DNA of 64,000 nucleotides from Candidatus Sulfotelmatobacter sp. (GCA_049584475.1 JBAUXX010000004.1:5218-69217); one strand, 5' to 3'. Positions 1 to 17,191 are shown, counted from the stretch's first letter. The notes: a model not told the origin generated them from the sequence alone. A program made the numbers and translations.

Positions 1-460
1 GAATGCGGTCTCCAACAATAACTTCGAAAGCGCCCGGCTTGAAACGCCGACCTTGCGTAATCACGATGCTGTCGCGCACGGCAAAAGCCCGCTCAGTTAC
101 GCCGCGAATCCCAACATTTGCCGGCCCGCCATCGCTCAGCCGTGTCATGCTGCTCACGGCGACTACTTCGCCCGACGCCAAAGGGTTACCGGAGTTGTCG
201 CGGGCGATACGCTCATCGACCACGATCGTGTTTGCCTGTTCGCGAGGGATCCACGAAACCAGTTCCGAGATAGCACCGCTTTGGGTGACGATGAAATTCT
301 CCGCCCGGCCGTTCAGCTTCAAGGCAGATCGAAACCCCGCCGCCATTGACAGCAGTGACACCATCACGGTCACGGTGAGCGCGATTCCGAGCGTCGCGAG
401 CAGGCTGCGTTGCCATCTTTTCACCAGGTTGCGAATTACGTAGCGCACTGGGAGGGCCAT
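1..460 (-). CDS. ABC transporter permease, FtsX/MacB-type (N-terminal part; 3' end runs off the window)
   Basis: Absent from the ORF track because it has no in-window stop. The reverse-strand ATG at 460..458 abuts the stop (463..461) of the upstream permease gene. Hand translation MALPVRYVIRNLVKRWQRSLLATLGIALTVTVMVSLLSMAAGFRSALKLNGRAENFIVTQSG... stays open to position 2. It shows the basic N-terminus, TM1 and start of the periplasmic domain typical of MacB/LolC-like permeases. The listed 3..443(+) ORF is its antisense shadow. Confidence 0.75.
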   Translation of the reverse strand, partial: MALPVRYVIRNLVKRWQRSLLATLGIALTVTVMVSLLSMAAGFRSALKLNGRAENFIVTQSGAISELVSWIPREQANTIVVDERIARDNSGNPLASGEVVAVSSMTRLSDGGPANVGIRGVTERAFAVRDSIVITQGRRFKPGAFEVIVGDRI

Positions 461-1621
461 CTATACCTCCCTCAGCGATCTGATGATTGGACTTCGATAA
501 GCTAACAAAGCGGGCGCCAGGCCGGCGAAAAGTGTGACTAGAAGGGCGACAGCAAATCCCGTGCCCGCCACCTCCAAACTGAGACCCGGAGATCGTGAGG
601 ACATGATCAAGTCACCGATGAGCGGGAACTGAGGCAAGGCCCCCACCAGTTCGTGACTGAGAAACACTCCAATGAGGCCGGCGCTGACTCCGATCAGCAA
701 AGCTTCGCCAAGAATGAGCACCATCACCGACCCGTTAGAAAAACCCAGCGTTTTCAGGATGGCAATCTCACCTCGTCGCTCGCGCACGGCCATACTCATA
801 GTATTAGCTATGATCAGGAGCACGGCAAAAGTGCCGGCCAGTGTGATGGCCTGCAGGAGAAAACTCAGATTGCCAGCCAGGGAAATGAAGCTTGCCCGGA
901 AAGCTGCTTCTGTTTCCGTGTGGGTTTGGGTTCCACTATTTTCGAATCGGCTGTCAATGTCCTTGCTGATGGCGCCGGCTTGCGACGCATCGGCGATCTC
1001 GATCGCATAAGTGGTAGGTCCCAGCTTCTCCCCGGTATTCTCATAAAAATAGGAGAAGTGAAAGAGCATTAGCTGGTCACTTCCGGTCTCCGTGTCAAAA
1101 ATGCCTCGCACCACGAATGCAAAAGGCGTTTTTGTACGGAACGGGGCGATGAAACTCTGAAGCTGGAAGGTGTCGCCCACCTGCCATCCGAACGTCTGCG
1201 CCAAGCTGCGGCTAACGATGCAACTGCGGCGGTCATCGAGGAACGCCTTTTTCGACTCCTCCGAAAGGCGGTATCTCGGATGCATCGCCAGGTAGGGTTC
1301 GGCATCGACGGCCAGGTTCGGAAAGAATCCCTTCAAGTCTTTGTAAACGCCGCCGAACCAGGTAACGCTGGAGACTCGAACTACTCCTGGGACGGCCTGA
1401 ATCTTCGCCTTGCATGCCATCGGCAAGTTGAAGATCCAACCCATCGCGTTGCGTGTGACCAGCCGGGAATCGGTTGCGTTGTGCAGACCTTGGTCGACGC
1501 TTTGCAGTACGGTGCGCATGGTGCAGAACAAGAAAACGCATGATGCCAGAGCCAGAACCGTACTAACCGTGCGAATCCGATTCCGGCGTAGATGTTTGGC
1601 GATAAGGAGTAAGAATTTCAT
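461..1621 (-). CDS. ABC transporter permease, FtsX/MacB-type
   Basis: 386 aa. N-terminus MKFLLLIAKHLRRNRIRTVSTVLALASCVFLF (TM1), then a large periplasmic domain and a C-terminal 3-TM FtsX-like block (ILKTLGFSNGSVMVLILGEALLIG...). Sits 3 nt after the ATPase gene in the same operon. Confidence 0.85.
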   Translation of the reverse strand: MKFLLLIAKHLRRNRIRTVSTVLALASCVFLFCTMRTVLQSVDQGLHNATDSRLVTRNAMGWIFNLPMACKAKIQAVPGVVRVSSVTWFGGVYKDLKGFFPNLAVDAEPYLAMHPRYRLSEESKKAFLDDRRSCIVSRSLAQTFGWQVGDTFQLQSFIAPFRTKTPFAFVVRGIFDTETGSDQLMLFHFSYFYENTGEKLGPTTYAIEIADASQAGAISKDIDSRFENSGTQTHTETEAAFRASFISLAGNLSFLLQAITLAGTFAVLLIIANTMSMAVRERRGEIAILKTLGFSNGSVMVLILGEALLIGVSAGLIGVFLSHELVGALPQFPLIGDLIMSSRSPGLSLEVAGTGFAVALLVTLFAGLAPALLAYRSPIIRSLREV

Positions 1622-1624
1622 GGA

Positions 1625-2362
1625 TCAGTCCGTAAAGACACCTTTCTCCAGGTGCCGCTGGCTGCGCGCCCGATCGGCGGCGCGCAGATCGTGCGTGACC
1701 ATAATCACGGTTTTGTGAAAATCCTGGTTAAGCGTGCAGATCAAATTGAGGATCTCATCCGCACTCTTGCCGTCAAGGTCTCCGGTTGGTTCGTCCGCTA
1801 CAATGATTTCGGGATCGGTAATAATGGCCCGCGCGATGGCGACTCGCTGTTCTTGTCCGCCGGAGAGCTGGCTGGGATAGTGACCGGCCCGATCGGCCAA
1901 TCCCACTAACTCCAATGCGGCCAGCGTGCGCTCGCGACGCTGCTTGCGGGACAAGGGTCTCAGGAGGAGGGGTAGTTCGATGTTTTCGAAAGCGGTCAGC
2001 ACCGGAATGAGGTGGTACATCTGAAAGACAAATCCGATGGTATGGCTCCGCCATTTTGCCAATTCCTCTGGTGACAAGCTCGCCAGATCCGTGCCGGCGG
2101 TAATGATCGTCCCGGAGATTGGCTGATCGAGACCCGCGATGAGGTTGAGCAAAGTAGTCTTGCCGGAACCAGAGGGTCCAACCAGCGCCAGAAATGCACC
2201 CTCCTGGATCTCGAGATCAATTCGGTCCAGTACCGGAACGGTCTGCCTGCCGCGCCGATAGGACATGGAAACCTGCTGTACCTGGACTTCACTCCCAATC
2301 AATGGTTGAGCTGCAACAGCCATGATGGCGTGTTCCTCTGCAATAGTTCCGACGGCTTTCAT
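1625..2362 (-). CDS. ABC transporter ATP-binding protein (MacB/LolD-like)
   Basis: Walker [10 protein letters not shown], signature [14 protein letters not shown], Walker [14 protein letters not shown]-loop VTHD. Its start overlaps the MFP stop (ATGA at 2362..2359). Confidence 0.9.
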
Positions 2363-3675
2363 TGAGCACCTCGAACTGAGAGTACGTGGGCGGCGTCACC
2401 GTCCCGTAGCGACAGCGGCGGCGACAGCACCAGGAGTTCTTGACCGGCCAGGCCTTGAAGTATCACCACTTGATCACCACGCTTTTCGCCGGCGGTGATT
2501 ACGCGCTCATGGGCAATTCCTTGCAAAACTTCGAACAGCACCGTGTTGCGACCGCGTGGCGCCAGGGCCTGCAGCGGCACGGTAATTACCGGTCGCGATG
2601 ATTGTGCCGCGCGCCCAACAGGTATTCCCTGCAGAAAAGTTACCTGTGCGGTCATCTCGGGCTTCAGCAGTAAGTCTGCATCAAGGATCGCAACCTTGGC
2701 CTGCACGGTACCTTTGGTGCGATCAGCGGTAGGAACAAGCTGGCGCAACAATCCGTGATACTTGTGGTCCGGAAAGGCCTGTACCATGATCTCGGCGGGA
2801 ATTCCTGCCCTGAGCTTTTCGATACTCGACTCGCCTACGTCCACCTCGACTTCCAGATGGCCGATGTCAGCAATGGCGACAATCGCACCGGATGAAGTGG
2901 AAATGTTGACTCCGGGTGGGATGGGAGCAACACTTTCTCCTACCTCGGCCATTTTCTTTACTACCATCCCGCTGAATGGCGCTCGTATGACTGTGTCTTC
3001 CTTCAAGACTTCTTGTGTGGCCAGATCCGCCTGAGCCAAAGCCAGGGCCGCTTCGGAAGCATTTACCCGGCTGACGGCGGCGTCCCTCTGGTCTCGCGAG
3101 GAAACCTTTGCATTTGCCAGCTCGTCAGCAATCTCCATCTGCCGCCGATTCTCGTTTAGAGCGGCTTGCGCCACCTGAATTGCGGCTTTTGAACCCGCTA
3201 TCCGGGAATCGAACTCGGCGCTTTGTAAGCGGGCAATGATTTGGCCCTGGACTACGCTGCTTCCGACATCGACATCCATCTCGGTCAAGAGTCCTTGAAT
3301 CTTCGCGGAAATCACGGCTTCTCGGCGCGCTACAACGTATCCGGAGGCGGTTAATATTGGCGTCCCCTGGCCCTCGATTCCGGCCCCCGTGAACGAAGGC
3401 CGCGCGCAGTTTACATCCACGGCATTGCTTAGCCCCCACATGCCCACGGCCGCTCGAATCGAGTGGCCAGAGGCCAAATAGGCGCCGAGCAAAAGAACTA
3501 AGGCAGGCAAGATTATTAGTGGAGCCATCCACCTCGCTGCTTTGCGGCGAGGAGCAGCCTTATCGATCTGCAGAGCACTCAGTCTTAGCCGGGTTGTCTC
3601 CCGGTCAAGGTGCACTTGGCCAGGTTCCTGATCTACTTCCTTTCGCGGCTGGGTGGCAGGTTGGATCACTCGCAT
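2359..3675 (-). CDS. Efflux transporter periplasmic adaptor (HlyD/MFP family)
   Basis: 438 aa. One N-terminal TM (WMAPLIILPALVLLLGAYLA), a lipoyl/hairpin region (GYVVARREAVISAKIQGLLTEMDVDVGSSVVQGQIIARL...coiled coil...VIRAPFSGMVV) and a beta-barrel C-terminus. First gene of the exporter operon. Confidence 0.85.
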   Translation of the reverse strand: MRVIQPATQPRKEVDQEPGQVHLDRETTRLRLSALQIDKAAPRRKAARWMAPLIILPALVLLLGAYLASGHSIRAAVGMWGLSNAVDVNCARPSFTGAGIEGQGTPILTASGYVVARREAVISAKIQGLLTEMDVDVGSSVVQGQIIARLQSAEFDSRIAGSKAAIQVAQAALNENRRQMEIADELANAKVSSRDQRDAAVSRVNASEAALALAQADLATQEVLKEDTVIRAPFSGMVVKKMAEVGESVAPIPPGVNISTSSGAIVAIADIGHLEVEVDVGESSIEKLRAGIPAEIMVQAFPDHKYHGLLRQLVPTADRTKGTVQAKVAILDADLLLKPEMTAQVTFLQGIPVGRAAQSSRPVITVPLQALAPRGRNTVLFEVLQGIAHERVITAGEKRGDQVVILQGLAGQELLVLSPPLSLRDGDAAHVLSVRGAQ

Positions 3676-4040
3676 TCCTTCTTACGCACAGTCTTAGTCC
3701 AGTTACCTGGTTCTCGCAACCGCTGAAGCGGCGAGAACAATCCCCGACCCTGAGGCGAGTCTAAATTTCGTGCAGCTTGGAAAACTCGGGCTACTCATTT
3801 GGGCAGAGCGAGAAATCGTGATCTCGGGTAGATGGAGACACGAGTCGTTTCCAAACAGATTGCGCCGGGCTCGCCGCGGAGAACAGATCGACCTCGCCAA
3901 GTCGGGGAGTCGTGGCCCAACACCGGGCCGGTTGCCCTGCCGGCGGCAGAGATTACAATCGGCGTTGGGCAGGTTGGTAATTTCACCTGACGGCGGTCCT
4001 TCCTTTCCCGCGATCCAGATCCGCCGACGCTACGTTCATC

Positions 4041-6398
4041 ATGAAAATCACTCTGATTCATCCGCCGCTGGACGATCCCACCATTCCCTACCATTCCACC
4101 GCATATTTAGCCGGGCACCTCAAGCACAACGGATTCACCGATGTCTCAATGCGCGACCTCAACATTGAGTTCGTCAACTATTGCCTGGAGCCGAACACCG
4201 TCAACGCTTTTTACGAAGAGGGAGATCGCAGGTTGCGCGCGTACAGTCGGGCCGCCAACCTGGGCTTTCAGGATCAGGAGCAGTATTATGCGCTAGGCGT
4301 CGCGCCTCGGGTTGACGACAGCGAGCTCCACTTGGCAGCCGGAGCGTTAAGAAAGCAAGATACTTTTCTGGATTATTCGACTTATGTAGCAAATGTAAAT
4401 CGACTTACCACTTACTTTGGGTTTCTGGGAGCTTTATCTTACCCTGCGGATATCGATTCCTTCACGTTCAAAACGCGCGGCCGACTGTCCTTTTACAACC
4501 TCTCGGATTTGTTCAACGCGGATCTGGGCGCACGCGTCTGTGCTCCGCTGGTTCGCTACTTTGACGAGCGCTTGTCTCACGACCTGGACCTGGCGACCAC
4601 AGGGTTGTTCGGTATCAGCGTTGTCTATGATCATCAGGTTTTTTATGCACTGCACCTGGCGAGGCTGCTCAAGCAGCGGTGGCCGGAAACCCCGCTGGTA
4701 TTCGGCGGTACAGCCATCAGCCAGATGTATAAATATCTGAAAGACAAGTCGCAGATGAAGAGATTCTTTCAAATCTGTGACGCAGTCGTGATCGGAGAAG
4801 GAGAAACCGCGATTTCCCAGATTGCGGCGTGCCCGGAAACGCTCTCGAGCGGACCGAAATTCATGAACAGCATCACCTACAACCGCAGCACCGAGCAGCT
4901 TACACTCCCGCTCGCTACCTATGAGGATGTCTCGAAGCTTGGCGCTCCCACTTACCGGCACCCATGGGACCTGTATCTCTCCCCGGAACGTGGCATCAAC
5001 TACTCTCCCACCCGAGGCTGCTACTGGAACCGGTGCACGTTCTGCGACTACGGGCTGAACAGCGATCGACCGACGTCGCCGTGGAGGGAGCGAAGGATCG
5101 ATCAGGTCATTGCCGATCTGAAGAGTGCGCAGATTGAGCACGGCGTCAAATACGTCTATCTCGCGGTTGATGTCATGGCACCCGGCTATCTGGAGCGTTT
5201 CTCGGATGCCCTGATCGATACGGGGTTGGACATCCGCTGGGGCGCTGAAATTCGCATGGAAAAGATCTTCACACCGGAGCGCTGCGTAAAATTGGCCCGC
5301 AGCGGATGCGTTGCCATGTCTTTTGGCATGGAGTCCGGGAACCAGCGGATTCTCGATCTTATTGACAAGGGCACTAAGGTCGCCTTCATGGCCGAAACCA
5401 TGAAAAACTTTTCCGCGGCGGGTATCGCGGTTCAGATCATGGCGTTTACCGATTTTCCCACCGAGACCGCGGAGGAGAAGGCGGCCACTTATAAGTTCGT
5501 CGAAGATAACGCCGCTTATTGCGCCGCTGGCGGCATGGGTCAATTCCTGCTGACCGGTACATCGATGGTGGCGAAAAACCCGGCCAAATTCGGGATCACA
5601 CTTGTAGACACTATCGATGCGGACGTTGCCCGCGCCATTGCCTACAATGTCGACGAGGCGGACGAGGGGAACGAGGGAAAGGACCGCAAACTCAATCTCA
5701 CCGAGGATATCGACGGTTCCTTCCGCGATTCAGGGAGCATTTTCCCCGTTTCGCTGGACCGCCCTTGGGCCGGAGGGACCGACAGCCTGCATTCGCTAAT
5801 TTACTATGCGACCTACGGAAGGTTTTTCTTCAGAGAACATACTCCGGATGAGTTTGCCCCGTTTGAGAATACACGAGAATCACTGTTGCAATGTAAGGTC
5901 GTGACGCGCGGTTTTCTCGGTGAATCTGCCTTCGATCTGTCGCGGATATTCAAGAATAGCGATCAATTTGCCGCTTACCTCACGAAGCGCCTGGCAATGC
6001 CCGCTGAACCAACCTACGACAGGTTCTGCGAATGGACAGGCGACGTAGCCAATCTAGCCTCGAGCGGCGAGGATAAGACTCACTGGCTGGTCACACCGCG
6101 AGAGGCAGTCAAGTTAAGCAGATCCGTTTATCAGATCCTGTCACTCGGTCTGGGACAGGAACTCACCCTCGCGCAGTTGTTCCAAGGGTCAAGTCGAGAA
6201 CTCACGAATGCACTCCTTGACTACTTTATCGAGTTGCAAAAAAAAGGATTGCTGGCCTTCGTTGTTCCAGGCAAGTCGCGCTGGGACCGTTTCGCGCTGG
6301 CGGACGATCGGATCGTCTCCCGGCCACGGAATCCGAAAGTGACTATGCCGCCAGGCACGCCAGAGCCTGTCCATACTATCGCTGGGCCTGGACAGTGA
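4041..6398 (+). CDS. B12-binding-domain-type radical SAM protein with long C-terminal extension
   Basis: 785 aa. N-terminal Rossmann-like region typical of class-B rSAM enzymes (MKITLIHPP..., GISVVYDHQ..., PLVFGGTA). Cys triad RGCYWNRCTFCDY (C327, C332, C335; nt 5019-5045). GMESGNQRIL motif. About 280 aa follow the core barrel. Confidence 0.85.
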   Translation: MKITLIHPPLDDPTIPYHSTAYLAGHLKHNGFTDVSMRDLNIEFVNYCLEPNTVNAFYEEGDRRLRAYSRAANLGFQDQEQYYALGVAPRVDDSELHLAAGALRKQDTFLDYSTYVANVNRLTTYFGFLGALSYPADIDSFTFKTRGRLSFYNLSDLFNADLGARVCAPLVRYFDERLSHDLDLATTGLFGISVVYDHQVFYALHLARLLKQRWPETPLVFGGTAISQMYKYLKDKSQMKRFFQICDAVVIGEGETAISQIAACPETLSSGPKFMNSITYNRSTEQLTLPLATYEDVSKLGAPTYRHPWDLYLSPERGINYSPTRGCYWNRCTFCDYGLNSDRPTSPWRERRIDQVIADLKSAQIEHGVKYVYLAVDVMAPGYLERFSDALIDTGLDIRWGAEIRMEKIFTPERCVKLARSGCVAMSFGMESGNQRILDLIDKGTKVAFMAETMKNFSAAGIAVQIMAFTDFPTETAEEKAATYKFVEDNAAYCAAGGMGQFLLTGTSMVAKNPAKFGITLVDTIDADVARAIAYNVDEADEGNEGKDRKLNLTEDIDGSFRDSGSIFPVSLDRPWAGGTDSLHSLIYYATYGRFFFREHTPDEFAPFENTRESLLQCKVVTRGFLGESAFDLSRIFKNSDQFAAYLTKRLAMPAEPTYDRFCEWTGDVANLASSGEDKTHWLVTPREAVKLSRSVYQILSLGLGQELTLAQLFQGSSRELTNALLDYFIELQKKGLLAFVVPGKSRWDRFALADDRIVSRPRNPKVTMPPGTPEPVHTIAGPGQ

Positions 6399-6507
6399 AG
6401 GCAAAATAGACGAAGGCCTAAAACACAACAGCGCGCATTCCCGGCCTCGTGGCGACAGTTCCCATTGCCGTTTCGAACGAATGTGTTGAGCCTCCATGAG
6501 TACTGCC

Positions 6508-9500
6508 TTAGTCGCTAGCCAGCCCGGGGTTGGTCTCGCTCCACTGGTACAGAACACGATGACGCTCAGAGGAGCCAAGCATGGGCAGGCGGTCGAAGGG
6601 CTGAGCATCGTCGGCGACCATGCCTTCCAGCAAGGTGCGGAAGTATCCCAGGTAGCGTTCGACCGTAGCTCGCTCAAATAAGGCGGTGGCGTACTCGATC
6701 CCGCCCGTGATGCTCTGGCCGGTTTCCTGTAAGAAGAGAGTGAGATCGAACTTTGCCACTCTGTGGGGTGCCGACAGGAGTGGGCGCAGTGTCAGTCCCG
6801 GAAGTTGCAGTGAGCCTTCGCTCTCGTTCTGCCATGCAAACATCACCTGAAAAACCGGACTGTGAGCCAGACTGCGCACCGGATGAGTCAGCTCAACCAC
6901 CTGTTCAAAGGGAATGTCCTGGTGCTGCTGCGCAGCCAGAGCCTGCGTTTTGGTTCGCTCCAGCAGTTCGCCTACGGTGGGCGATCCGGACAGGTCCAGA
7001 CGTATCGCCAGCGTGTTGACGAAGAAACCAATGAGGTTCTCGATCTCGGCACGTCCGCGGTTGGCGGTTGGGGATCCGATGACCAGATCGAGTTGACCGG
7101 ACAGTCTGGCAAGCAACACCGCCCAGCCAGCCAGCAAGGTCATGTACAACGTGGTGCCGTGGCGCAGACCGAGCTGCCTCAGGCCGGCGGTTAGTTGTTC
7201 ACCGAGCAGCAGTTCCGCAAAACTGCCGGCATAGTCCTGCCGGGGCGGATGAGGATGGTCTCCGGGCACCTCCAGCAGCGCCGAAGCTTCAGCCAGATTG
7301 GTCTTCCAGTAGGCTGCTTGTCTTTGCAGAATTTCGCCTTCGATCCACTTTCTCTGCCAGACGGCGTAGTCGGCATACTGAATTTCCAACTCCGGCAGCG
7401 GATCGTCTTTCCCCTGTAGATAAGCGCCATACAACGCGCTTAATTCGTTGACCAGCAGGCCCATCGACCAGGCATCGGAGACGATGTGATGCACGGTGAT
7501 CAATAGAGCGTGCTCGTCCTCGGCAAGACGAATGAGCTGGCCGCGGATCAGCGGCCCTGTTTCGAGATCAAAGCAGGTTACGCCCTCGATCCCGGTGATG
7601 CGGTCCAGTTCCGCCTGGCGCTCCCTGTGCTGGCGCAGATCGTGCTCGATTAATGGGAAACGGCTCTTCCCGCCGTCAGCGATCTGTTGCACGGGCTCTC
7701 CATCGATGAAGGGAAACGAAGTGCGCAACGCTTCATGCCGGACCACGATGCGATCCAGGGCGTGGCACAGTGCCCAGTGATTGAGTTCTCCGCGCAAATG
7801 CAAGCCGGTCGAGATGTGGTAGGCGTAGCTGACTCCCTCCATTTGAGCCAGGAACCACAACCGCTGCTGCGCAAATGACAGCGGTAACTTCTTACCTCGT
7901 TCGCAGTACGTGATGAGAGGCAGTACGGAGTGTGCGGCGGTCTCGAGACTGCGGGCCAGATCGGCGAGCACCGGATGCGCGAAGAGGTCGCGCATCGCCA
8001 CTTCCACGCGCAGTGCCTGCTGTAGGCGGGTGACCACCCGCACTGCCAACAGGGAGTGTCCACCGAGTTCGAAAAAGTTATCGTATCTGCCGATCTTGTC
8101 CAGCTTCAGCAAGTCGGCCCAGATCTGCGCCAGCCGGGTTTCGATCTCGCCCTGCGGCGCCTCGTAGGCACGCACGGCGTAGGCATCCCCGTCCGGAGCT
8201 GGCAACGCCTTGCGGTCCAGCTTGCCGTTGGGCGTTAGAGGTAAAAACTCCAACCGCACGTAGGCCGCCGGCACCATATACTCAGGCAGCTTCTCCGATA
8301 AGTGAGCTCGCAGCGATTCCACAGTAAGTTTGTGTTGTTCGGAATCGCCGGCGCTCGAAGCGCTGTAGTAAGCGACCAGACGCTGGTCCCCAGGAGTATC
8401 TTCGCGGGCGATCACCACCGCTTCGTGCACCGCCGGATGTTCGGCCAGCCGGGCCTCGATCTCGCCCAACTCAATTCGGAATCCGCGGATCTTTACCTGA
8501 AAGTCGTTCCGCCCCAAAAACTCAAGGTTGCCGTCCGCCAGCCAACGGGCCAGATCGCCTGTACGATACATGCGTGCCCTCGCGTCGGCAGCGAAAAGAT
8601 CTTTGAGGAAGCGCTCGGCCGTCAACTCCGGACGGTTCAGATACCCCCGCGCTACCCCAACCCCTCCGATATACAACTCCCCGGCTACTCCTACAGGTAC
8701 TGGTTCCCCATGAGCATCCAGTACGTACACCCGTGTGTTCGCGATCGGTCGGCCAATGGAGCTAACATCCTGAATCTGGGTAATGTCCTTTATGACAGAC
8801 CAAATTGTTGTCTCGGTGGGACCGTACATATTCCAGGTAGATGAACTGCGTTCGGTCAAGCTTCGAGCTAAGCTAACGCTCAGGGCTTCTCCACCGCAAA
8901 GGACTTTGAGGTCGTTGGTTCCTTTCCATCCCGCTTCCAGAAGCATTCGCCAGCTTGTGGGCGTAGCCTGCATTAGCGTCACGCCACGCTGTAGTTGTCT
9001 CATCAGAAGAGCGCCATCGGCGCCGGCATCCCGGCTCGCCACGATGATCCGCGCTCCCTTTGTCAGCGGAAGATAAATCTCCAGCGCCGCGATATCGAAA
9101 GCAAATGTCGTAACCGCGAGTAAAGTGTCGTTAGCGCTAATACCGGGGCTTTGGTGCATGGAGCAAATCAAATTCGTCAGGCTGCCATGTTCAATCGCAA
9201 CGCCCTTGGGGTTGCCGGTGGAACCGGAAGTGTAGATGACATAGGCCAGATGGCTGGTGGTGAGTCCGATGCTGTCCCGATTGGGGTTGCTCTCGGGCAG
9301 ACGGCTCCACTCAATTGCACTATCGCTCAGATCAATCACGGGCAGGGTCTCGCTGATTCCCGCGAAGAGTTCCAGTAAATGCCCTTGTGTGAGTAACGCC
9401 ACCGGCCCACAGTCTTCCAGCATGTAGCGCAGTCGTTCCACCGGATAGCCCGGATCCAGCGGCACGTAGGCTCCGCCGGCCTTGAGCACTCCCAGCAGAC

Positions 9501-11196
9501 CCACGATCATCTCAAGCCCGCGCTCCACGCAAATGGCCACCCGCGCGTCCGGCTTCACCCCCCGTAGTCTGAAGTAGTGTGCCAGCCGGTTGGCTCTGGA
9601 GTTCAGCTCCGCGTAGCTCAGCGAATCGTCATCGAAAACCACGGCGACCGCATCGGGACTTCTGGCCGCCTGCTCTTCAAACAACTCATGCACGCATTTC
9701 CCACTTGGATATTCCGACTTGGTGTCGTTCCACTCGTAAACCACTCGATGGCGCTCGGCAGCACTGAGTATAGGCAGACGGTCGACTACCTCGGCGTCGT
9801 TGGCTACCATCGCTTCCAGCAGCGTGCGAAAGTATCCCAGATAGCGTTCGACCGTCGATCGCTCAAACAGCGACGTGGCGTACTCCAACCCGCCAACAAT
9901 CTCTCCAGCTTCCTCCTGTAAGTAAAGCGTCAGGTCAAACATCGCAGTGGTGTGGGGCAATCCCCGAAAGTGGTCTTGTGTCAACCCGGGTGCAAGTGTC
10001 GACGCGGTGCTCCTCGGATAGTTCAACCATGAGAACATCACCTGGAAGAGTGGACTGGAAGCCAGACTGCGCACCGGCTGCATTCTTTCCACGACCTGCT
10101 CGAAGGGGATGTCCTGATTCCGCTGCGCGGCCAACACTTGCGCCTTCACTCGCCCGAGCAAGTCGCCGACCGTGGGCGAGCCCGAAAGATCCAGACGCAG
10201 CACAAGGGTGTTGACGAAACATCCAATCAGTCCCTCGATCTCGGTGTATCCGCGATTGGCCACTGGCGTACCTGTGATCACATCCTGCCCGCCCGACAAT
10301 CGCCCCAGCAGAGCGACCCAGCCCGCCAGCAAGGTCATAAAGAGGGTGGTGCGATGGCGTCTACTCAGCTCTTTCAGCCCGGCCGTCAGCTCCGCATCAA
10401 AGATCAGTTCGTGAAATGCGCCGTCAAAGTTCTGCTGAGCCTGACGAGCATGATCCTTGGGAAGCTCGAGCAACCCCGGGGCTCCGGTCAGGGTGTTTAT
10501 CCAATAATCGGCCTGTCGCCGTAGAATATCGCCCTGTATCCACTTTCTCTGCCACTCGGCATAGTCGGCGTATTGCAGGCCCAGCTTCGGCGGGGGGTCG
10601 GGTTCGTTTCGCAAGCACGCCCCGTAGAACACGGTGAGTTCTTTCTGTAATATCCCCGCTGACCATCCGTCGGAAACGATGTGGTGCATCGTGATCAGGA
10701 GTAGGTGTTCATCTTCCGACCACCGGATGAGCCGGCCACGGATGAGCGGACCAAATTTGAGATCGAAAGATGTGCTGGCCTCCTCCGCAACGAGACGATC
10801 GAGTTCGACCTGCGCATTCCCATGTTGGCGTAAATCATACTCAGCCAAATGAAAACATCTGTCTCCGACAGAAGCAATCTGCGGAACAGCTTCCCCGTCG
10901 ATCTGCGTGAACGTCGTCCGCAGCGCTTCATGCCGTTCTATCACCCGATCCAGTGCTCGGCGAAGAGTTATGCGGTTGAGATCGCCCCGCAGGCGGAGGT
11001 AGAGCGGGATGTGATGAGCCCTGCTGCCGCCTTCTATCTGCGCCAGAAACCACAGGCGCTGCTGGGCAAAGGACAGAACAAGCCGCCCATTTCGTTCCCC
11101 GCGCGCAGGTGGCGGAAGTTCAGTGGGAACCACATTCGCAACGCCCCGTTGGGAATCGACTGACACCTCGGGCAGGATGCGATTCATCATGATCAC
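6508..11196 (-). CDS. Non-ribosomal peptide synthetase, single module, domain order C-A-T-C
   Basis: 1562 aa. C1 approx res 38-480 (nt 9757-11085; HHIVSDGWS). A approx res 500-1000 (nt 8197-9699; [55 protein letters not shown]). T approx res 1012-1085 (nt 7942-8163; FFELGGHSL). C2 approx res 1103-1545 (nt 6562-7890; HHIVSDAWS). No TE or R domain. Confidence 0.95.
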   Translation of the reverse strand: [1562 protein letters not shown]

Positions 11197-11281
11197 AGAA
11201 ACTCATTGCACGCCGTCGGGGTTGAGTATACACTCCGCCTCAGCCGAGAGATAGAACTGGAAGCTCGGGCCAGGATCTATC

Positions 11282-12931
11282 TTGGGCCACACTCCTCTAA
11301 GAATCGCGGTCCTTTCCAATTTCGTAGCACTCGAGATCAGAGATGCTTTCGATGTGTGGTTCAAGACTTTGGAAATAGATCCCGTTGTTACCTTCAGCCC
11401 CTGCGACTTAGTAATTCAGCAGCTTCTCGATCCTAATGACGATTGCACTCATTGCGATCTTGCCGTCATTTTGCTTCAGATCGAACGTTGGTGCACGCGG
11501 TCAAAAAGTGCGCCTCACGAACTTGCTCTCAAAAACATTGAAAGCTTTGTAAGTGCCGCCAGACACGCGGCCCTGAATTACCCAGCTCGCATGCTACTGG
11601 TTATATGTTGCCCCATCTCGACTAAGAACCATGCGAACCCGAATGCACTTCTGTTAGAGGATCAATTGCGGGATAGCTTCCGGGATATCGCTAACCTCGA
11701 TTTTATGGGGACTAGTGACCGTGACTCATATTATCCCGCGGCGGATAACAGCGCGTATTTCCTGGAGGGTGCTTTCGCGGATGACGATCCCCTTTCGGAG
11801 ACTTTGCCCTACAGCCAGCTATGTTTCGCGACTTTAGGGACGATGGTTGCTCGTTGTATTCACAAACGATTCAAAGAGTCTCGCAAAGTTATCGTCGTGG
11901 ATTGCGATAACACTCTATGGTCGGGAATTTGTGGAGAGGCAGACAGTGAAACGCTGAACATTGGCGGAGGTAACCTTATGTTGCAGGAAATCCTGGTTCG
12001 CCAATCGAAGCGCGGGCAACTGGTGTGCCTGTGCAGCAAGAACGACGAATCCGATGTCTTTGCCGCGTTTGACCGGCAACCGGGCATGGTGCTCAAACGC
12101 GAGAACCTTACCTCGCACAGAATCAATTGGCAGCCTAAGACGGACAATCTCCGGTCTTTGTCGGAAGAACTGCGGCTGGGATTGGATGACTTCATTTTCA
12201 TTGACGACGACCGCTTTGAATGTGAATCGGTTCGAGCCTTATGTCCAACCGTTCGTACCATTCAAGTACCTCACGATCAGGATGAATTCTCCCGGCTCCT
12301 TTTGCAGATTTGGGATTTCGATAAAGCCCCAGTCACCGAAGAAGACACAAAGCGAGCCCTGTACTATCGTCAAAATGCTGAGCGCGATCGCGCGTTGGGG
12401 ATGTCGCCGACGCTCGTCGATTTCCTCGCAAGCTTGGACCTGAAGGTTGAGATTCTTCCACTCACTGTCGCGGATGCAGCGCGCGTCTCGCAACTTTTGC
12501 GCCGAGTGAACCAATTCAACCTGAACGGAATTCAACGGTCCGTAAGCGAACTTATCGGCCTGATCGGGGAAACGCCCTGCTACACCATACGCGCCGCGGA
12601 TCGTTTCGGCGACTATGGCCTGGTGGGAGTTGTCGTCTATCGCAGATGGGACCACGCTTTGCATGTAGAAACATTGGCTCTTAGCTGTCGATCCCTCGGT
12701 CGTGGAGTGGAAGGCCATTTGAAGGCTCACTTCGCGGAGACCGCCCGTTCCTTGAAAAGCACAGGCCTTTCGTTCGAGATGCGAACTACGACGAAAAATG
12801 GACCCCTACGCACGTTCCTCACCCAATTGGGGTGTGAGGATAATGGGCAAGGTCAGTACGTAGTCACCGCTGACACACTGGCCTTGCCAGGGAACCACAG
12901 CAACTGGCCTCAGGAGCAGGCGCTGGCGTGA
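11282..12931 (+). CDS. FkbH-like HAD-IIIC family protein (glyceryl-carrier-protein loading enzyme type)
   Basis: 549 aa. N-terminal LRIAVLSNFVALEI...DLVIQQLLDPN region. HAD motifs VIVVDCDNTLWSG (DxDxT), LCSKND and FIFIDDD. C-terminal GNAT-like half with LSCRSLGRGVE (conserved Cys). The track uses a TTG start. Confidence 0.8.
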   Translation: MGHTPLRIAVLSNFVALEIRDAFDVWFKTLEIDPVVTFSPCDLVIQQLLDPNDDCTHCDLAVILLQIERWCTRSKSAPHELALKNIESFVSAARHAALNYPARMLLVICCPISTKNHANPNALLLEDQLRDSFRDIANLDFMGTSDRDSYYPAADNSAYFLEGAFADDDPLSETLPYSQLCFATLGTMVARCIHKRFKESRKVIVVDCDNTLWSGICGEADSETLNIGGGNLMLQEILVRQSKRGQLVCLCSKNDESDVFAAFDRQPGMVLKRENLTSHRINWQPKTDNLRSLSEELRLGLDDFIFIDDDRFECESVRALCPTVRTIQVPHDQDEFSRLLLQIWDFDKAPVTEEDTKRALYYRQNAERDRALGMSPTLVDFLASLDLKVEILPLTVADAARVSQLLRRVNQFNLNGIQRSVSELIGLIGETPCYTIRAADRFGDYGLVGVVVYRRWDHALHVETLALSCRSLGRGVEGHLKAHFAETARSLKSTGLSFEMRTTTKNGPLRTFLTQLGCEDNGQGQYVVTADTLALPGNHSNWPQEQALA

Positions 12932-12992
12932 GATTAGACGCCATTGCACCTGCGACAGACTCTGAAATGACGAACAGATAGGAGAGTATCGA

Positions 12993-13322
12993 ATGGACAC
13001 GTTCTCCGACAGTCCTGCTCAGGTTCTATCTAGAATTCGCTCTGAACGAAAACCCCGACCTGAGATCGGAGAGTACACAGCTCCCGCGGATGAATTGGAA
13101 TACGCCGTGTCCGAGATCTGGTCCGAGGTCTTGAGAATCGATCCCATTGGACGCGAAGATAACATTTTCGACTTCGGTGGGGATTCTCTCCATATGGCTC
13201 AAATCGCAGCCCGAATTTGGACGCGTTTCCACGTCCGGATTTCAATCGATACCTTCTTCGAAAATCTGACCATGGCGTCGATAGCTGGTGTTGTGCGAAA
13301 TTCCAGCCAGATCGAATCCTGA
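12993..13322 (+). CDS. Free-standing peptidyl carrier protein
   Basis: 109 aa. Phosphopantetheine attachment motif IFDFGGDSLHMAQI in a roughly 80-aa four-helix-sized frame. Lies directly downstream of the FkbH-like gene. Confidence 0.8.
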   Translation: MDTFSDSPAQVLSRIRSERKPRPEIGEYTAPADELEYAVSEIWSEVLRIDPIGREDNIFDFGGDSLHMAQIAARIWTRFHVRISIDTFFENLTMASIAGVVRNSSQIES

Positions 13323-13395
13323 CTGGGCCAGCGTTGCATCGGAAACAAGTTCTGCGGCGTGCCTGAGCATTATATGCAGTGCCTGGTGACTCTCA

Positions 13396-14925
13396 GTGCA
13401 GAGACTTCGAAGTAAAGACGCCGCTCAGTCATCGGTGACTTCGATCGTCATCCCAACCTGCGACCGGCCGGCGGCTCTCCGCCGCTGTGTGTCCACGCTG
13501 CTTTCCAATCTGGCACGCTATGGCCGTAGCCCGAGAATACTGATTGCCGATGGGTCTGTCACCCGCGATTCTCCAGTTGACAATCAGGATGTGGCTGCGA
13601 GTTTCAAGGGGAAATACTCAGCCAGTGTTGCGTTGATCGGCCACGAGGAGAGAGGGCATCTTATTAGTGAGTTAGTATCGGCCGGTCTGGAAGAGGGCGT
13701 GGTGCAGTTTGCCCTGGGTGGGGTACCGGATCTGAGCATTGGCTGCTTCGGGGCGAATCGCAACTTTCTTCTCCTCATGACCTCCGGGGAGGAATTTGTG
13801 AGTGTGGATGACGACACGGAGCCGTCGTTCGCATCAGCCAGTGAGTTCCAGCGTAGTTCGGCGGCCGAAGACAGTGTGAAACATGTGGACTTGGGTCCAT
13901 TCATGCAGGTACGGGCTTATCGCGACCGTGAGTTTCTTCAAGAGTCTGTGAAATTCGGTCAACTGGATTTCATAGGAGCTTACGAGTCTATCCTGGGCGC
14001 CAGAGTTTCCGAATTCTGTCCTCCCTTTGGCGAACGCGCTATCGTGGCCGGTACTGCGGACTCGCCGGCTGAGTCCGGCCGAGTCGTACTCACCCTTAGC
14101 GGCCTCGCGGGCGACTGCGGTTGGGGCACCCCCTCGCAATATCTATTTCTGAGCAAAGAATCATTAGAAGAACTAACCAGCTCAAATGAAGTGTACCTGG
14201 AAAGTATAACTTCGCGGGACTTAGTGCAACTCGCCACCACCGTAACTCTCTCTCAACGGACGGATTACCTGATGGCCACCGCCTTCGCAGCAGATAACCG
14301 AACCATGCTGCCGCCATTCATTCCTGTGGGAAGGGGAGAAGATAGTGTGTTCGGACGTGTAGTGCAAAATACGCAGCAAGACGTCTGGTTCGGGCATCTG
14401 CCACATGCGATTTTCCACGGGCCGGTTGGCCGACGTCGCTTTGCGCGCGGAGAGATCATTCGCAGCGCGGCTACAACCGACCTGTCATCTTTGATGTGCG
14501 CCATGGTGGAACAGTTCCCAGCACGGGGACGCGATGTGGCTGCTTCTCTCCGGGAATTAGGAAGGTCGCTAAGTGCTTTCGGTGGCATGTCAATTAAAGC
14601 ATTCCAGGAGTGCATCCGAGCATGCCGGACAAGACTAAGTCAATCTCGCCTGGCGTTTTTGGAAGCTCGATTGGGATCGGCAGGGGGACTGGCGCCATCG
14701 TATGTCGCCGATCTCACGACTTATATCGGGCGACTTCGGGAGGGTGATAAGCGTGAGGAAGCTGGAATCCCCATGGAGATCCTGTATGGTCGTGAGATAG
14801 ACGATGCACTTTACTGGACCCGCAAGGTGATTGCAACGTATGGAGAACTGCTCTCCGTTTGGCCCGACATCGTCGACCTGGCGCAAGCCTACTCAACCAG
14901 GCTGTTGGAAGACTCGCGCGTGTAA
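13396..14925 (+). CDS. GT-A-fold glycosyltransferase-like protein, family unassigned
   Basis: 509 aa, GTG start. N-terminus VTSIVIPTCDRPAALRRCVSTLL (GT2-like beta1), GANRNFLLL, DXD-type VSVDDDTE, downstream PVGRGEDSVFG and HLPHAIFH. The C-terminal roughly 200 aa show no motif I recognise. Confidence 0.45.
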   Translation: MQRLRSKDAAQSSVTSIVIPTCDRPAALRRCVSTLLSNLARYGRSPRILIADGSVTRDSPVDNQDVAASFKGKYSASVALIGHEERGHLISELVSAGLEEGVVQFALGGVPDLSIGCFGANRNFLLLMTSGEEFVSVDDDTEPSFASASEFQRSSAAEDSVKHVDLGPFMQVRAYRDREFLQESVKFGQLDFIGAYESILGARVSEFCPPFGERAIVAGTADSPAESGRVVLTLSGLAGDCGWGTPSQYLFLSKESLEELTSSNEVYLESITSRDLVQLATTVTLSQRTDYLMATAFAADNRTMLPPFIPVGRGEDSVFGRVVQNTQQDVWFGHLPHAIFHGPVGRRRFARGEIIRSAATTDLSSLMCAMVEQFPARGRDVAASLRELGRSLSAFGGMSIKAFQECIRACRTRLSQSRLAFLEARLGSAGGLAPSYVADLTTYIGRLREGDKREEAGIPMEILYGREIDDALYWTRKVIATYGELLSVWPDIVDLAQAYSTRLLEDSRV

Positions 14926-14971
14926 CGGTAGGTATCCTGACTCAGATGAGGATGAACGGTAGAGTTCCGCG

Positions 14972-15970
14972 GTGTTCAAGGAATTCCTGATGATAAGCGT
15001 CATCGTTAGCACATTCGACCAGCCGGATGCTCTGGCCGCCCTGATGGCAGGCCTGTCCTGCCAGACTACCTCGGAACCGTTCGAGGTAATCGTCTGTGAC
15101 GACGGCTCCAAATCCGACACAGCGGAAGTTGTACGGCACTGGGCGGCAAAGGGGCGGCTCGATGTCAGGCTGGTCTGGCAACCGGATATTGGCTGCCGTG
15201 TCAGTCGCTCAAGGAATAATGGAATTCGTATGGCCCGGGGAGACCTATTGGTGTTTCTCGATGGGGACCTTCTTGTGAGGCCCGACTTGCTTGCCAGTCA
15301 TATTGACCAACATACGCTTGGACAGCACAGGGTGGTGTGCGGCTCGCGGCGTTCCGGTGAATTCCGATCTCCGGATCGCCTGAGCGAAATCCTGAACTCA
15401 CAGGAGAAGCCACAAGTTGTTCTCCACCGACTTTGGGAAGAATGCCATGTCTTGGATCTGCCCACCGACACCGAGGTTCGCAGGGGCTGGCTCAAGACGT
15501 CATCCAAGTGGATGGCAATGGTGAGCTGCAACTTTAGCGTGCCCAAAACCTCGGAGATATGGTTTGACGAGTGCTTCGTTGGCTGGGGCTACGAAGACAC
15601 CGAGCTAGCCTTTCGCCTAATCTGCATTCATGGGTATGAAGTCATCTATGCGCCCATGACTGAATCCCTCCATCTGTTCATCGGCGGCGCGATACCCTCG
15701 GCCAATCCGCTCTTTATAAACGCGAGGCAGAATGTCTCGCCGGTGATTCGCAACCTGATGTATTTTCTCTCGCTGTATCCGGATTACGATCTTCGCCCCG
15801 CGTTGTTCTTTTTCAACCGATGCGAACTCGACCGTGCTACCGATGAGTGGTACACGCTGACGGAGCCGCGCGGCGTGCTCGTCGAAGAGGCCCTCGCCGC
15901 CGCGCGGGGATGGCAGCAACGCCACTCTCAACGGGAGCAGACCTCGGAAGTTTTACAGGCGAAGATATGA
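14972..15970 (+). CDS. Family 2 glycosyltransferase
   Basis: 332 aa. ISVIVSTFDQPDALAALMAGLSCQT, EVIVCDDGS, RNNGIRMARGDLLVFLDGDLLV (DXD) and VGWGYEDTELAFRL (GWGxED motif of the galactosyltransferase-like C-terminal region). GTG at 14972, or ATG at 14990. Confidence 0.75.
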   Translation: MFKEFLMISVIVSTFDQPDALAALMAGLSCQTTSEPFEVIVCDDGSKSDTAEVVRHWAAKGRLDVRLVWQPDIGCRVSRSRNNGIRMARGDLLVFLDGDLLVRPDLLASHIDQHTLGQHRVVCGSRRSGEFRSPDRLSEILNSQEKPQVVLHRLWEECHVLDLPTDTEVRRGWLKTSSKWMAMVSCNFSVPKTSEIWFDECFVGWGYEDTELAFRLICIHGYEVIYAPMTESLHLFIGGAIPSANPLFINARQNVSPVIRNLMYFLSLYPDYDLRPALFFFNRCELDRATDEWYTLTEPRGVLVEEALAAARGWQQRHSQREQTSEVLQAKI

Positions 15971-16149: not shown

Positions 16150-16608
16150 TCAGCGCAAACCCGTTTTCATTTCGCTAGTCGGCTTGAGTGTGCCAAGGCG
16201 ACGGCGCAGCAAGTAGTAACCGGTCCAGCACACAATCGCCAGCACGGCAAAGGATCCGAACTGAGCTGGAAAATCACGCATCAGGAAATGGAAACTCTTG
16301 ATGCGACCGCCTTGGAAGGAAATTTCGCTAGTGAGTGCGATGGCGGTGAAGGTGATCCCCAAGCCGAAGAGCCACTTCTGCCAGCCGATCAGCGCGCGCG
16401 TGCGACGAAGCGATCGTAATTCAAGATCGGGGGGAAGCGCGGAGGGCGTGATTTTTCCAAGGTTGTCCGCCCACTGCACGCGTATGCGCTGCGCCAACTC
16501 AGGATCCTGCTCCATGTATTCTTCGACAAGCGCACGCGTGGCCGGGCTGGCCTCGCCCGCAAGATAGAGCGGCAGGACATCGAGGATCACTTCCCGCGTA
16601 ACGTTCAT
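16150..16608 (-). CDS. Putative membrane anti-sigma factor (ZAS-like fold without zinc ligands)
   Basis: 152 aa, 38 nt downstream of the ECF sigma gene. The N-terminus EVILDVLPLYLAGEASPATRALVEEYMEQDPELAQRI matches the anti-sigma N-terminal helix pattern. Where the HxxxCxxC motif is expected it reads Y...D..L. Two predicted TM segments. Confidence 0.55.
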   Translation of the reverse strand: MNVTREVILDVLPLYLAGEASPATRALVEEYMEQDPELAQRIRVQWADNLGKITPSALPPDLELRSLRRTRALIGWQKWLFGLGITFTAIALTSEISFQGGRIKSFHFLMRDFPAQFGSFAVLAIVCWTGYYLLRRRLGTLKPTSEMKTGLR

Positions 16609-16646
16609 TTCCCACCTCCTTCAATCACATTCATAAATCTCTCCGG

Positions 16647-17120
16647 CTAAGCATTTCGTATCCCAGCCAGCGCGAGACGAGCCCGGTGGATTTTCACTTT
16701 CACCGCCGCGAGAGAAATGTCCAGTACCCGGGCAATCTCCTCGTACGGCATTCCGTCCACCGCGTGCATGAGCAGCGCAACTCGGCTGGCTTCCGGCATT
16801 CTTTGGAGTTCGTCAAGCACGGAATCTAATTTTTCATTCTGCGCGGCTCGCACGTAGGGGCTGGCCTGCCGATCGCACAGGTCATCGTCGAGCGGAACCT
16901 GGCGCGACTTTTTCCGCAGTCCTTGCAGAAACAGGTTTCGCGCAATGGTAAAGAGGTAGCCCTTAACCGTCGCCATCTCGATCGGCTCGGGCGAAGTCCA
17001 TGCGCGCACGAAGGTCTCGGAGGTTATGTCTTCGGCTTCTCCGCGGTTGTTGGACAAGTACAGCGCGAATCGGTACACATCCGGCGCATACTTTCTGTAG
17101 AGCGAGCTGAAGTCGGTCAT
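16647..17120 (-). CDS. ECF-type RNA polymerase sigma-70 family factor
   Basis: 157 aa. Region 2 (DITSETFVRAWT, YLFTIARNLFLQGLRK) and region 4 HTH (MPYEEIARVLDISLAAVKVKIHRAR). Confidence 0.9.
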   Translation of the reverse strand: MTDFSSLYRKYAPDVYRFALYLSNNRGEAEDITSETFVRAWTSPEPIEMATVKGYLFTIARNLFLQGLRKKSRQVPLDDDLCDRQASPYVRAAQNEKLDSVLDELQRMPEASRVALLMHAVDGMPYEEIARVLDISLAAVKVKIHRARLALAGIRNA

Positions 17121-17191
17121 TCGGCCGTCTCACCGGAACTACCCATATCGCCCAGACTGTTATATCAGTGGGGCCGCATACTAAAGCGTCG

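Follow-up and report, generated by a model that had tools for sequence, protein, structure and literature searches.

A candidate glycerate-primed, single-module non-ribosomal peptide synthetase cluster from an uncultured acidobacterium, and the large unannotated family of its putative carrier-dependent glycosyltransferase p509

The 64,000-nucleotide stretch of DNA considered here, which we refer to as the window, belongs to a metagenome-assembled genome (MAG) of Candidatus Sulfotelmatobacter sp. (GCA_049584475.1 JBAUXX010000004.1:5218-69217; Acidobacteriota, Terriglobales), an uncultured soil acidobacterium. Judged by its genes, the region 1-15970 is a complete-looking orphan cluster built around a non-ribosomal peptide synthetase (NRPS), of which only the far end of an exporter and a LuxR-type regulator appear to be cut off. 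Beside the NRPS it encodes an FkbH-like protein, a free-standing peptidyl carrier protein (PCP), a cobalamin-type radical S-adenosylmethionine enzyme (rSAM), a GT2 glycosyltransferase, a MacB-type exporter and a 509-residue protein without family assignment, which we term p509 and which is the main subject of this account. Mapping of open reading frames (ORFs) recovered all of the cluster genes at exactly the layout and coordinates given in a preliminary description of this DNA, and the enzyme assignments made there (FkbH, PCP, C-A-T-C NRPS, GT2, B12-type rSAM, MacB-type exporter) were borne out by Pfam and NCBIfam scans and by structural neighbours. With C, A and T standing for condensation, adenylation and thiolation domains, the genes are as follows.

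1..460, minus strand: FtsX/MacB-type permease 2, N-terminal 153 aa only, the gene continuing past the left window edge (MacB_PCD match)
461..1621, minus strand: FtsX/MacB-type permease 1, 386 aa, ~4 transmembrane segments by hydropathy (FtsX 58.3 bits, MacB_PCD 38.1 bits)
1625..2362, minus strand: ATP-binding cassette (ABC) ATPase of the MacB/LolD/DevA type (ABC_tran 124.9 bits)
2359..3675, minus strand: periplasmic adaptor, a membrane fusion protein (MFP) (HlyD_D23; TIGR01730 RND_mfp 152.8 bits against a cut-off of 94.9)
4041..6398, plus strand: cobalamin-type (class B-like) rSAM, 785 aa, probable C-methyltransferase (Radical_SAM match; structural neighbours)
6508..11196, minus strand: single-module NRPS C1-A(Gly)-T-C2, 1562 aa, with no thioesterase (TE) or reductase (R) domain (Pfam Condensation twice, AMP-binding, PP-binding)
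11282..12931, plus strand: FkbH-like glyceryl-carrier-protein synthase, 549 aa, start codon uncertain (TIGR01686)
12993..13322, plus strand: free-standing PCP, 109 aa, GGDSL motif (PP-binding 50.2 bits)
13396..14925, plus strand: p509, 509 aa, GT-A-like, putative on-carrier O-glycosyltransferase (fold matches, conserved motifs, carrier-domain fusions)
14972..15970, plus strand: soluble GT2-family glycosyltransferase, 332 aa (Glycos_transf_2 76.8 bits against 23.3)

In searches with p509, neither a Pfam nor an NCBIfam family reached threshold, and none of the PDB sequences matched. When its AlphaFold2 (AF2) model (predicted local distance difference test score, pLDDT, 85.8) was compared with the PDB by Foldseek, all matches with E<1e-3 were GT-A glycosyltransferases (TarP, GlfT2), and the weaker matches included hyaluronan synthase, K4CP and the glycosyl-3-phosphoglycerate synthases MpgS/GpgS. 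Like TarP, GlfT2 and K4CP it appears to have a beta-alpha-beta core at its N-terminus, and it has an Asp following beta2, a DXD motif (here DDD) and a distal His, but it is only ~9-10% identical to them (TM-score ~0.3-0.45), has a large C-terminal helical domain and, alone among these proteins, is physically coupled to NRPS carrier domains. Invariant in 20 sequences are D52, GANRN 119-123, DDD 138-140, GD 239-240, PPF..GR.ED 306-316 and H341, and in an hhalign comparison D52 and DDD fall in register with the DDGS and DGD of the neighbouring GT2; no transmembrane segments are predicted in either protein. From sequence and model together we infer that p509 is a soluble, metal-dependent transferase that uses a nucleotide sugar to O-glycosylate a carrier-bound unit.

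The family to which p509 belongs can be called large but unannotated, because an exhaustive profile search returned 4,274 representatives of 50%-identity clusters, 2,646 of them at E<=1e-30, and yet p509 reaches threshold with no Pfam or NCBIfam family; a word-indexed search had returned 27 relatives. Domain architectures were surveyed in the best 150 of the 4,274 representatives together with the first set of relatives. They include stand-alone proteins of ~500 aa, T-p509, FkbH-T-p509, A-T-p509, C-A-T-p509 and, with a ketoreductase (KR) domain, A-KR-T-p509 (P0290), as well as fusions to a TubC docking domain (TubC-docking-domain-p509, P0356), to a GT2 (GT2-p509, P0350), to an FkbM methyltransferase (p509-FkbM, P0349) and to a PCP (PCP-p509, P0131 and P0132). 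Wherever NRPS domains are present in this survey, p509 is the last domain of the protein and directly follows a carrier domain. The A-domain codes directly before T-p509 are Ser-type in five cases, Thr-type in three, Asn in one and Cys-like in one, while two lack Asp235, one of the latter being the keto-acid-reducing A-KR-T module; the tethered unit therefore always appears to offer a hydroxyl or other nucleophilic side chain, as glycerate does.

A pattern scan based on an alignment of eight p509 sequences, run over one genome per GTDB species, gave 22 loci. Half of these (11/22) encode a fused FkbH-T-p509 protein directly before a C domain, in hosts that include Microcoleus, Oscillatoria, Halomicronema, Byssovorax, a Cloacimonetes MAG, Rhodothermales and others (Cyanobacteria and Myxococcota among them), and such loading modules occur in at least six phyla. 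At other loci of the 22, p509 ends an A-T or C-A-T module (three), follows an A-T protein (one) or forms a PCP-p509 protein with an FkbH gene nearby (one). The module that follows FkbH-T-p509 in Byssovorax (L024) is also Gly-specific. Three loci, L017 (7400-14246), L018 and L029 (a Rhodothermales MAG), have FkbH-T-p509 followed by an ORF of ~850 aa, which in L017 is C-T-TE by Pfam with no A domain and in L018 and L029 has the same C...T pattern by phmmer; going by domain order, these should be minimal assembly lines whose products would be very small glycerate conjugates.

The commonest form of p509 is one of ~600-670 aa that carries an uncharacterised N-terminal extension of ~120 aa, for which a check against PqqD and RiPP recognition elements (RiPP, ribosomally synthesised and post-translationally modified peptide) gave a PqqD match in one of seven cases, and that a weak one (E 0.1). 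This ~600-aa form stands beside a C39-peptidase/ABC bacteriocin exporter at L025 4127-16967 (Ktedonobacter robiniae SOSP1-30) and similarly at L027, and loci of the L025 type also hold several small ORFs whose products have double-glycine-type leaders and cores rich in Gly, Tyr and Asn. Because the exporter and these leader-bearing ORFs adjoin it, the gene context suggests a branch of the family that modifies ribosomal peptides.

Could p509 be something other than a glycosyltransferase? Its only approach to a family model is a sub-threshold N-terminal match to Pfam GT2 (PF00535; 21.1 bits against 23.3) confined to residues 16-67, and its fold matches are weak (TM-score 0.29-0.33 by query and 0.43-0.47 by target, E ~1e-4), which with the missing PDB sequence match would suit another hydroxyl-directed transferase with a nucleotide-activated donor (phospho-, nucleotidyl- or phosphoglycosyl-), a protein that prepares beta-elimination or a non-catalytic scaffold. 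The nucleotide-diphospho-sugar transferase fold also includes nucleotidyltransferases, and Ser, Thr and glycerate share an eliminable beta-hydroxyl. Such roles nevertheless seem improbable to us, given that every fold match under E 1e-3 is a glycosyltransferase, that the DDD motif, Asp52 and His341 are invariant and that D52 and DDD align with the nucleotide-binding and DXD motifs of GT2, and that some members are fused to a canonical GT2 or have one as a neighbour; beta-elimination in particular fits poorly with A-KR-T-p509, which offers only an alpha-hydroxyl, and with the one Asn module that precedes p509.

Preferring glycosyl transfer, we advance as a serious possibility, tentatively, that p509 founds a large unannotated family (at least 2,646 clusters at 50% identity) of glycosyltransferase domains that depend on carrier proteins. 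In NRPSs they would be the first domains to glycosylate in line, acting on T-tethered glycerate, Ser, Thr or hydroxy acid, with a sister form bearing another N-terminal recognition domain in RiPP-like bacteriocin loci, and the window would hold a minimal free-standing version that makes a glycosyl-glyceryl-glycine. No report of an in-line, carrier-dependent or NRPS-embedded glycosyltransferase was found in the literature, and nothing relevant on glycosylated N-terminal glycerate or on FkbH in Acidobacteria, although subscription journals were largely uncovered, so that both are weak evidence. In keeping with the preliminary description, the literature search likewise turned up no characterised cluster of the same gene content, within the same incomplete coverage.

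The unit to be glycosylated would be supplied by FkbH, which scores 269 bits against TIGR01686 (cut-off 146.65) over residues 201-521 and in which DCDxT 207-211 (D207-C-D209-N-T211), S252/K253, K286, D308 and S468-C469-R470 are at least 95% conserved in 119 homologues. The PCP gene lies 61 bp downstream; it is also directly 3' of FkbH in L001, L002, L005 and L007-L011, and the two proteins are fused in many homologues. FkbH is thus a member of its family by score, and by the chemistry of that family it would tether a D-glyceryl unit from a phosphoglycerate onto the free PCP. The NCBI record of the MAG calls FkbH as a truncated 362-aa HAD-IIIC phosphatase (MGA8428305.1) and p509 as a "hypothetical protein" (MGA8428306.1), and the consecutive accession numbers suggest that the PCP is unannotated there.

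FkbH-primed loading modules with in-line tailoring are exemplified by OciA of Planktothrix. As the present FkbH would, DysB (dysinosins) and SuoB (suomilide) load a carrier with glycerate that becomes the N-terminus of a short non-ribosomal peptide, and the hydroxyls of their FkbH-loaded glycerate are methylated and sulfated in line by domains that are embedded in the loading module or joined to it (PMC6520454, PMC8609519). The partner domains there are a methyltransferase and a sulfotransferase, whereas in the window the partner is the GT-A-like p509, the components are free-standing, the NRPS has one module, for Gly, and a TE is lacking. Corramycin, vioprolide and cystomanamide likewise have glycerate incorporated by FkbH within an NRPS, and corramycin shares the pairing of FkbH with an rSAM, the likeness to its enzyme ComJ being taken from the paper's description, not from sequence (PMC10099666). 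They differ from the window in that glycerate there serves as acceptor and is esterified by the C domain upstream of it, behind a fatty-acyl-AMP ligase-acyl carrier protein (FAAL-ACP) pair or a peptide, and in being long multimodular lines with a TE, for which no p509-type domain is reported.

Motif-anchored extraction of the A-domain code of the window NRPS gave DILQLGMIWK, which is also found in L014 and L024 and agrees with what we take to be the reference code for Gly (DILQLGLIWK/DILQLGMIWK), so that the residue assigned to this module earlier stands. The two C domains carry the motifs HHIVSDGWS and HHIVSDAWS, the T domain carries GGHSL, and the A-domain core motifs are present. Since C1 and C2 are 62% identical, an intragenic duplication is suggested. 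Among solved C domains the closest to C1 are of the elongation type (Txo2/Txo1 427/424 bits, TycC6 253 bits), compared with 100 bits for the surfactin starter C and 90 bits for TycB1, a subtype call that is indirect in that it uses scores against solved domains, not typed C-domain hidden Markov models (HMMs). Domain scans of the main window ORFs (non-overlapping, >=150 aa) revealed no TE, R, polyketide synthase (PKS), FAAL or phosphopantetheinyl transferase (PPTase) domain, and a search of all frames of the window no MbtH motif, which accords with the preliminary description. Lipoinitiation by C1 was considered and is disfavoured, because C1 is of the elongation type, resembles C2 as closely as stated and has no acyl-activating gene (no FAAL or ACP) to serve it, and the "lipo" option of the preliminary description is likewise unsupported.

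Related loci bear on the order of assembly. At L005 an NRPS of the form C-A-T-C-A-T-C-A-T stands divergent to FkbH-PCP without p509, and since this NRPS begins with C and ends with T, glycerate fits there only as a starter. The fused FkbH-T-p509 proteins have no C domain upstream and a C domain following, and the divergent arrangement of FkbH-PCP and a C-initial NRPS is found in L002, L005 and L007-L011 as in the window; for these reasons glycerate is favoured as the starter in the window too. The same observations make a reversed order unlikely, in which C2 with FkbH and PCP in trans would act as a split C-FkbH-T module, glyceryl-S-PCP would be the acceptor in an ester bond, C1 would N-acylate Gly, and the resulting acyl-Gly-O-glycerate would then be glycosylated, close to the lipo-conjugate envisaged earlier. 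That order has documented precedents in the esterifying C-FkbH-T modules of vioprolide, corramycin (PMC10099666) and cystomanamide (PMC9581180), and the window NRPS does terminate in a C domain with no downstream module, while the NRPS of L002 both begins and ends with C. It would, however, need both a donor for C1 and a means of release from the PCP in addition to what is there, as no acyl-activating enzyme, ACP or TE is encoded, and C1 is not of the starter type.

The gene that follows p509 encodes a GT2 with a match to the chondroitin synthase K4CP (1e-22), which probably adds a second sugar. The GT2 part of the fusion P0350 was tried as an orthologue of this protein and rejected (E 0.78).

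The rSAM matches Radical_SAM (PF04055; 46.1 bits, cut-off 29.5), with an N-terminal B12-binding match below threshold (PF02310; 28.1 bits, cut-off 32.1). Its best NCBIfam model is TIGR03975, a RiPP C-methyltransferase (83.2 bits, far under the cut-off of 281.85), and in the NCBIfam scan it reached the cut-off of none of the curated methyltransferase equivalogs (TIGR03975, PhpK, others); no transmembrane segments are predicted. Top Foldseek neighbours of the AF2 model (pLDDT 79.8) are OxsB, TsrM, CysS, TokK and MgmA (E 3e-10 to 8e-9), all of them cobalamin-dependent radical SAM enzymes and most of them methyltransferases. With CysS, TokK, TsrM, MgmA and the TIGR03975 enzymes it appears to share an N-terminal Rossmann/B12-like domain, followed by the radical SAM barrel. 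It departs from them in its cluster motif, C327-x4-C332-x2-C335 (invariant in 35 homologues), which is spaced CX4CX2C and not as the canonical CX3CX2C, in an extra C-terminal region of ~290 aa without family assignment, where the model shows a beta-beta-alpha-alpha-alpha-beta winged-helix-like element, and in belonging to a distinct acidobacterial family; a PDB sequence search with the window rSAM gave no match.

Homologues of the rSAM number more than 900, mostly acidobacterial, and a metagenome scan gave 80 loci. Relatives at <=56% identity mostly lie behind small peptides and an HExxH membrane protein: loci such as L035 8397-12340 and L036 8339-12349, and further L042-L049, L056, L058, L061, L075, L086, L087, L092, L098, L104, L107 and L108, contain one to three peptides of 58-62 aa, then a membrane protein of ~440 aa with HExxH and an rSAM homologue (50-56% identity), often with MacB-type pumps nearby. 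The peptides have a conserved leader (..PEELEPRLELQVLVDP..; in the RiPP-like loci ..L(S/L)EL.PEELEPRLELQV(L/F)VDP..) and Asn/Gln-rich cores, which are poly-Asn, poly-Gln, an NQ-repeat or NNCRDGGNC. By these features the L035/L036-type loci look like an acidobacterial RiPP-like family, a context that agrees with TIGR03975 as the best NCBIfam model.

In a neighbour-joining tree the NRPS-adjacent rSAMs form one clade, made up of the window type, L039 (75% identity), L034 (61%), L041 (58%) and L052 (54%), from which L115 (~59%, NRPS-adjacent, frameshifted) was left out; all clade members with enough flank are NRPS-adjacent, and outside the clade only one distant locus is. At L039 the layout LuxR, FtsX, FtsX, ABC, MFP / rSAM is retained at 75% identity beside a different NRPS, A(Ser)-FkbM-T, and at L034 the order is GerE-rSAM-PPTase-NRPS. 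In both loci (L034 17003-19004, L039 1-3117) a Ser-specific A domain is interrupted by an FkbM-type methyltransferase, and these A-FkbM-T modules probably make O-methyl-serine units; the two clusters are partial, with no TE visible either.

Because its clade is NRPS-adjacent and its structural neighbours are of the cobalamin type, the rSAM is linked to NRPS pathways at the level of the clade and is probably a C-methyltransferase. A direct precedent comes from corramycin, for which the radical SAM methyltransferase ComJ is proposed to C-methylate FkbH-derived glycerate to 2,3-dihydroxybutyrate (PMC10099666). The substrate in the present family need not be glycerate, since the clade also accompanies NRPSs without FkbH (L034, L039). 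That the rSAM, exporter and LuxR genes are instead independent of the NRPS and FkbH, a remnant or a separate unit of RiPP origin that merely adjoins them, would be in keeping with the RiPP-like setting and nearby pumps of most relatives at <=56% identity and with the conservation of the full gene set in close relatives only, and yet we judge it rather unlikely. No precursor-like ORF or HExxH partner came to light in the window: small ORFs at 3600-4100 are unconvincing as RiPP precursors, and neither an HMM of 37 precursor peptides nor a phmmer search with the HExxH partner protein found a match. An NRPS stands beside every clade member with enough flank and beside L115 as well, and class B rSAMs that act on NRPS intermediates are known, for example CysS, itself a structural neighbour.

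The exporter combines FtsX and MacB_PCD permeases, a separate ATPase and an MFP adaptor (Pfam/NCBIfam), and by this domain content it is classed as a generic MacB-type (type VII ABC) tripartite exporter. The type VII systems MacAB, LolCDE and DevBCA, like the pump here, bring together an MFP, an ATPase on the cytoplasmic side and permeases of the FtsX type that carry the periplasmic core domain of MacB; the present pump has two separate permease genes as LolC/LolE do, yet an MFP as MacA/DevB. The DevBCA-type label of the preliminary description was not upheld, as the ATPase scored 191.3 bits against the DevA model TIGR02982 (cut-off 295.8) and the MFP 33.4 bits against the DevB model TIGR02971 (cut-off 129); with the LolD and MacB curated cut-offs also missed, equivalog membership of DevBCA, LolCDE or MacB was rejected. 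There is no outer-membrane partner of the pump in the window. The envelope or surface destination suggested earlier for the product was pure inference and is not borne out, all of the tailoring enzymes being soluble. The junctions of the exporter genes are overlapping or abutting, as had been described, with a 4-nt overlap of the MFP and ATPase genes and the remaining junctions abutting or with a 3-nt gap. As for the four transcription units proposed for the cluster, the gene orientations agree and the unit count rests on orientation only, a promoter/terminator scan having given counts no higher than in shuffled sequence.

The expectation that the genes would be conserved together holds for relatives at ~90-97% amino acid identity (L008-L011, L037, L038), in which the whole set MFP-rSAM-NRPS-FkbH-PCP-p509-GT2 is kept, and fails beyond them, where the set splits into two cassettes, FkbH-PCP-p509 and LuxR-exporter-rSAM. 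The FkbH-PCP-p509 trio is kept at 49-97% FkbH identity in L001, L002, L007-L011, L037 and L038, and in L001 and L002 (49-69%) it lies beside quite different NRPSs. Comparison of these loci presents the window cluster as a mosaic of the two cassettes, and because the whole set is kept in relatives and the sub-cassettes recur at much greater distance, the arrangement is no chance adjacency.

The reading of the cluster that we favour on balance, if not by much, is that of a glycerate-primed one-module NRPS. FkbH would load the D-glyceryl unit onto the PCP, p509 would glycosylate a hydroxyl of glyceryl-S-PCP while it is tethered, and GT2 would attach the second sugar. C1 would then join the (glycosyl)glyceryl donor to Gly-S-T, giving (glycosyl)glyceryl-Gly-S-T, though the order of these steps is itself conjectural. 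Terminal or stand-alone C domains release chains in VibH, the enacyloxin C domain, the rhabdopeptide terminal C and crocacin CroK, and here C2, whose HHxxxD motif is intact, would off-load the chain to some nucleophile or to water, there being no TE or R domain. The rSAM would most likely C-methylate the scaffold, in parallel to the proposed methylation of glycerate by ComJ or the carrier-bound methylation by CysS, and the MacB-type pump would export the product. A very small scaffold of glycerate and glycine carrying sugars, as envisaged in the preliminary description, remains the best reading; going by the genes, the product is most likely a small polar glycosyl-glyceryl-glycine derivative with one or two sugars, not a lipopeptide.

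Such a product is a glycosylated glycerate amide and so calls to mind the glycosyl-glycerate-type compatible solutes (cf. glucosylglycerate, mannosylglycerate, mannosylglyceramide), the analogy with mannosylglyceramide being speculation. A solute made by a thiotemplate route, and not a secreted bioactive compound, would be consistent with MpgS/GpgS among the weaker fold matches of p509 and with the minimal FkbH-T-p509 plus C-T-TE lines, including that of Rhodothermales (L029). We nevertheless consider it very improbable, as the tripartite exporter, the LuxR regulator and rSAM tailoring are typical of secreted specialised metabolites, and cells make solutes in large amounts by inexpensive soluble pathways.

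Several observations weigh against the glycerate-primed, on-carrier glycosylation that we prefer. Besides the limited resemblance of p509 to known glycosyltransferases, the documented acceptor role of glycerate in C-FkbH-T modules and the occurrence of the rSAM clade without FkbH, all set out above, the cluster contains no sugar-nucleotide biosynthesis gene, its genes indicate neither the sugar donor nor the nucleophile for C2, and a PPTase is absent from the window. The full seven-gene set is confined to close relatives, and GT2 follows p509 only in the close lineage and L001, so that GT2 is lineage-specific. A stand-alone p509 homologue at L012 9989-11524 (an Acidobacteriota MAG, 44% identity) has no NRPS neighbour; it lies among AIR-synthase-like, DNA-methylase, HD-domain and MacB-type permease genes, with no FkbH, PCP or NRPS gene within 10 kb.

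The limits of the cluster were drawn from its relatives. L038 has permease 2 in full (389 aa) and after it a LuxR/GerE regulator, which places the left boundary, cut off in the window, at this regulator. To the right of GT2, within 16150-18637, lies a three-gene block, comprising a probable anti-sigma partner (16150-16608), an extracytoplasmic function (ECF) sigma factor (16647-17120) and an Rce1-like CPBP protease (17181-17927), which is present in L008 and missing from L009-L011, where the far right flank also differs. On these grounds GT2 is taken as the right boundary, with a Glyoxalase_4 (bleomycin-resistance-fold) gene as a possible addition: it stands right of the Rce1-like gene in the window and directly after GT2 in L009-L011, and this position suggests that it could confer resistance. 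At L039, too, an Rce1-like gene lies 3' of the rSAM. The rest of the window (19705-37420, 54252-58397) is a polysaccharide-utilisation neighbourhood unrelated to the cluster, with an esterase, an arabinofuranosidase, a tannase/feruloyl esterase, GH3, GH31, two LacI regulators, a fucosidase, GH9 and a 1381-aa protein with CarboxypepD_reg and an outer-membrane beta-barrel.

To our knowledge, the sugars of non-ribosomal peptides are added by free-standing enzymes, usually after chain release. If the proposal made here is true, NRPS tailoring would gain a new step through a widespread domain that glycosylates building blocks while the carrier holds them. Genome mining would gain a new predictable rule by which thousands of "hypothetical" proteins and NRPS C-terminal regions become interpretable, and the engineering of glycosylated peptides a compact tool. 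With its one-module NRPS and four soluble proteins of small size (FkbH, PCP, p509, GT2), the window would be the simplest test bed for the proposal. The rSAM clade, for its part, seems to have passed from RiPP pathways to those of NRPSs. Very few natural products of Acidobacteriota have, as far as we know, been characterised, and the cluster provides a concrete orphan pathway for this phylum. Taken as a cluster it is one more orphan biosynthetic gene cluster, and the broader finding is the large, unannotated family of carrier-coupled, GT-A-like p509 proteins.

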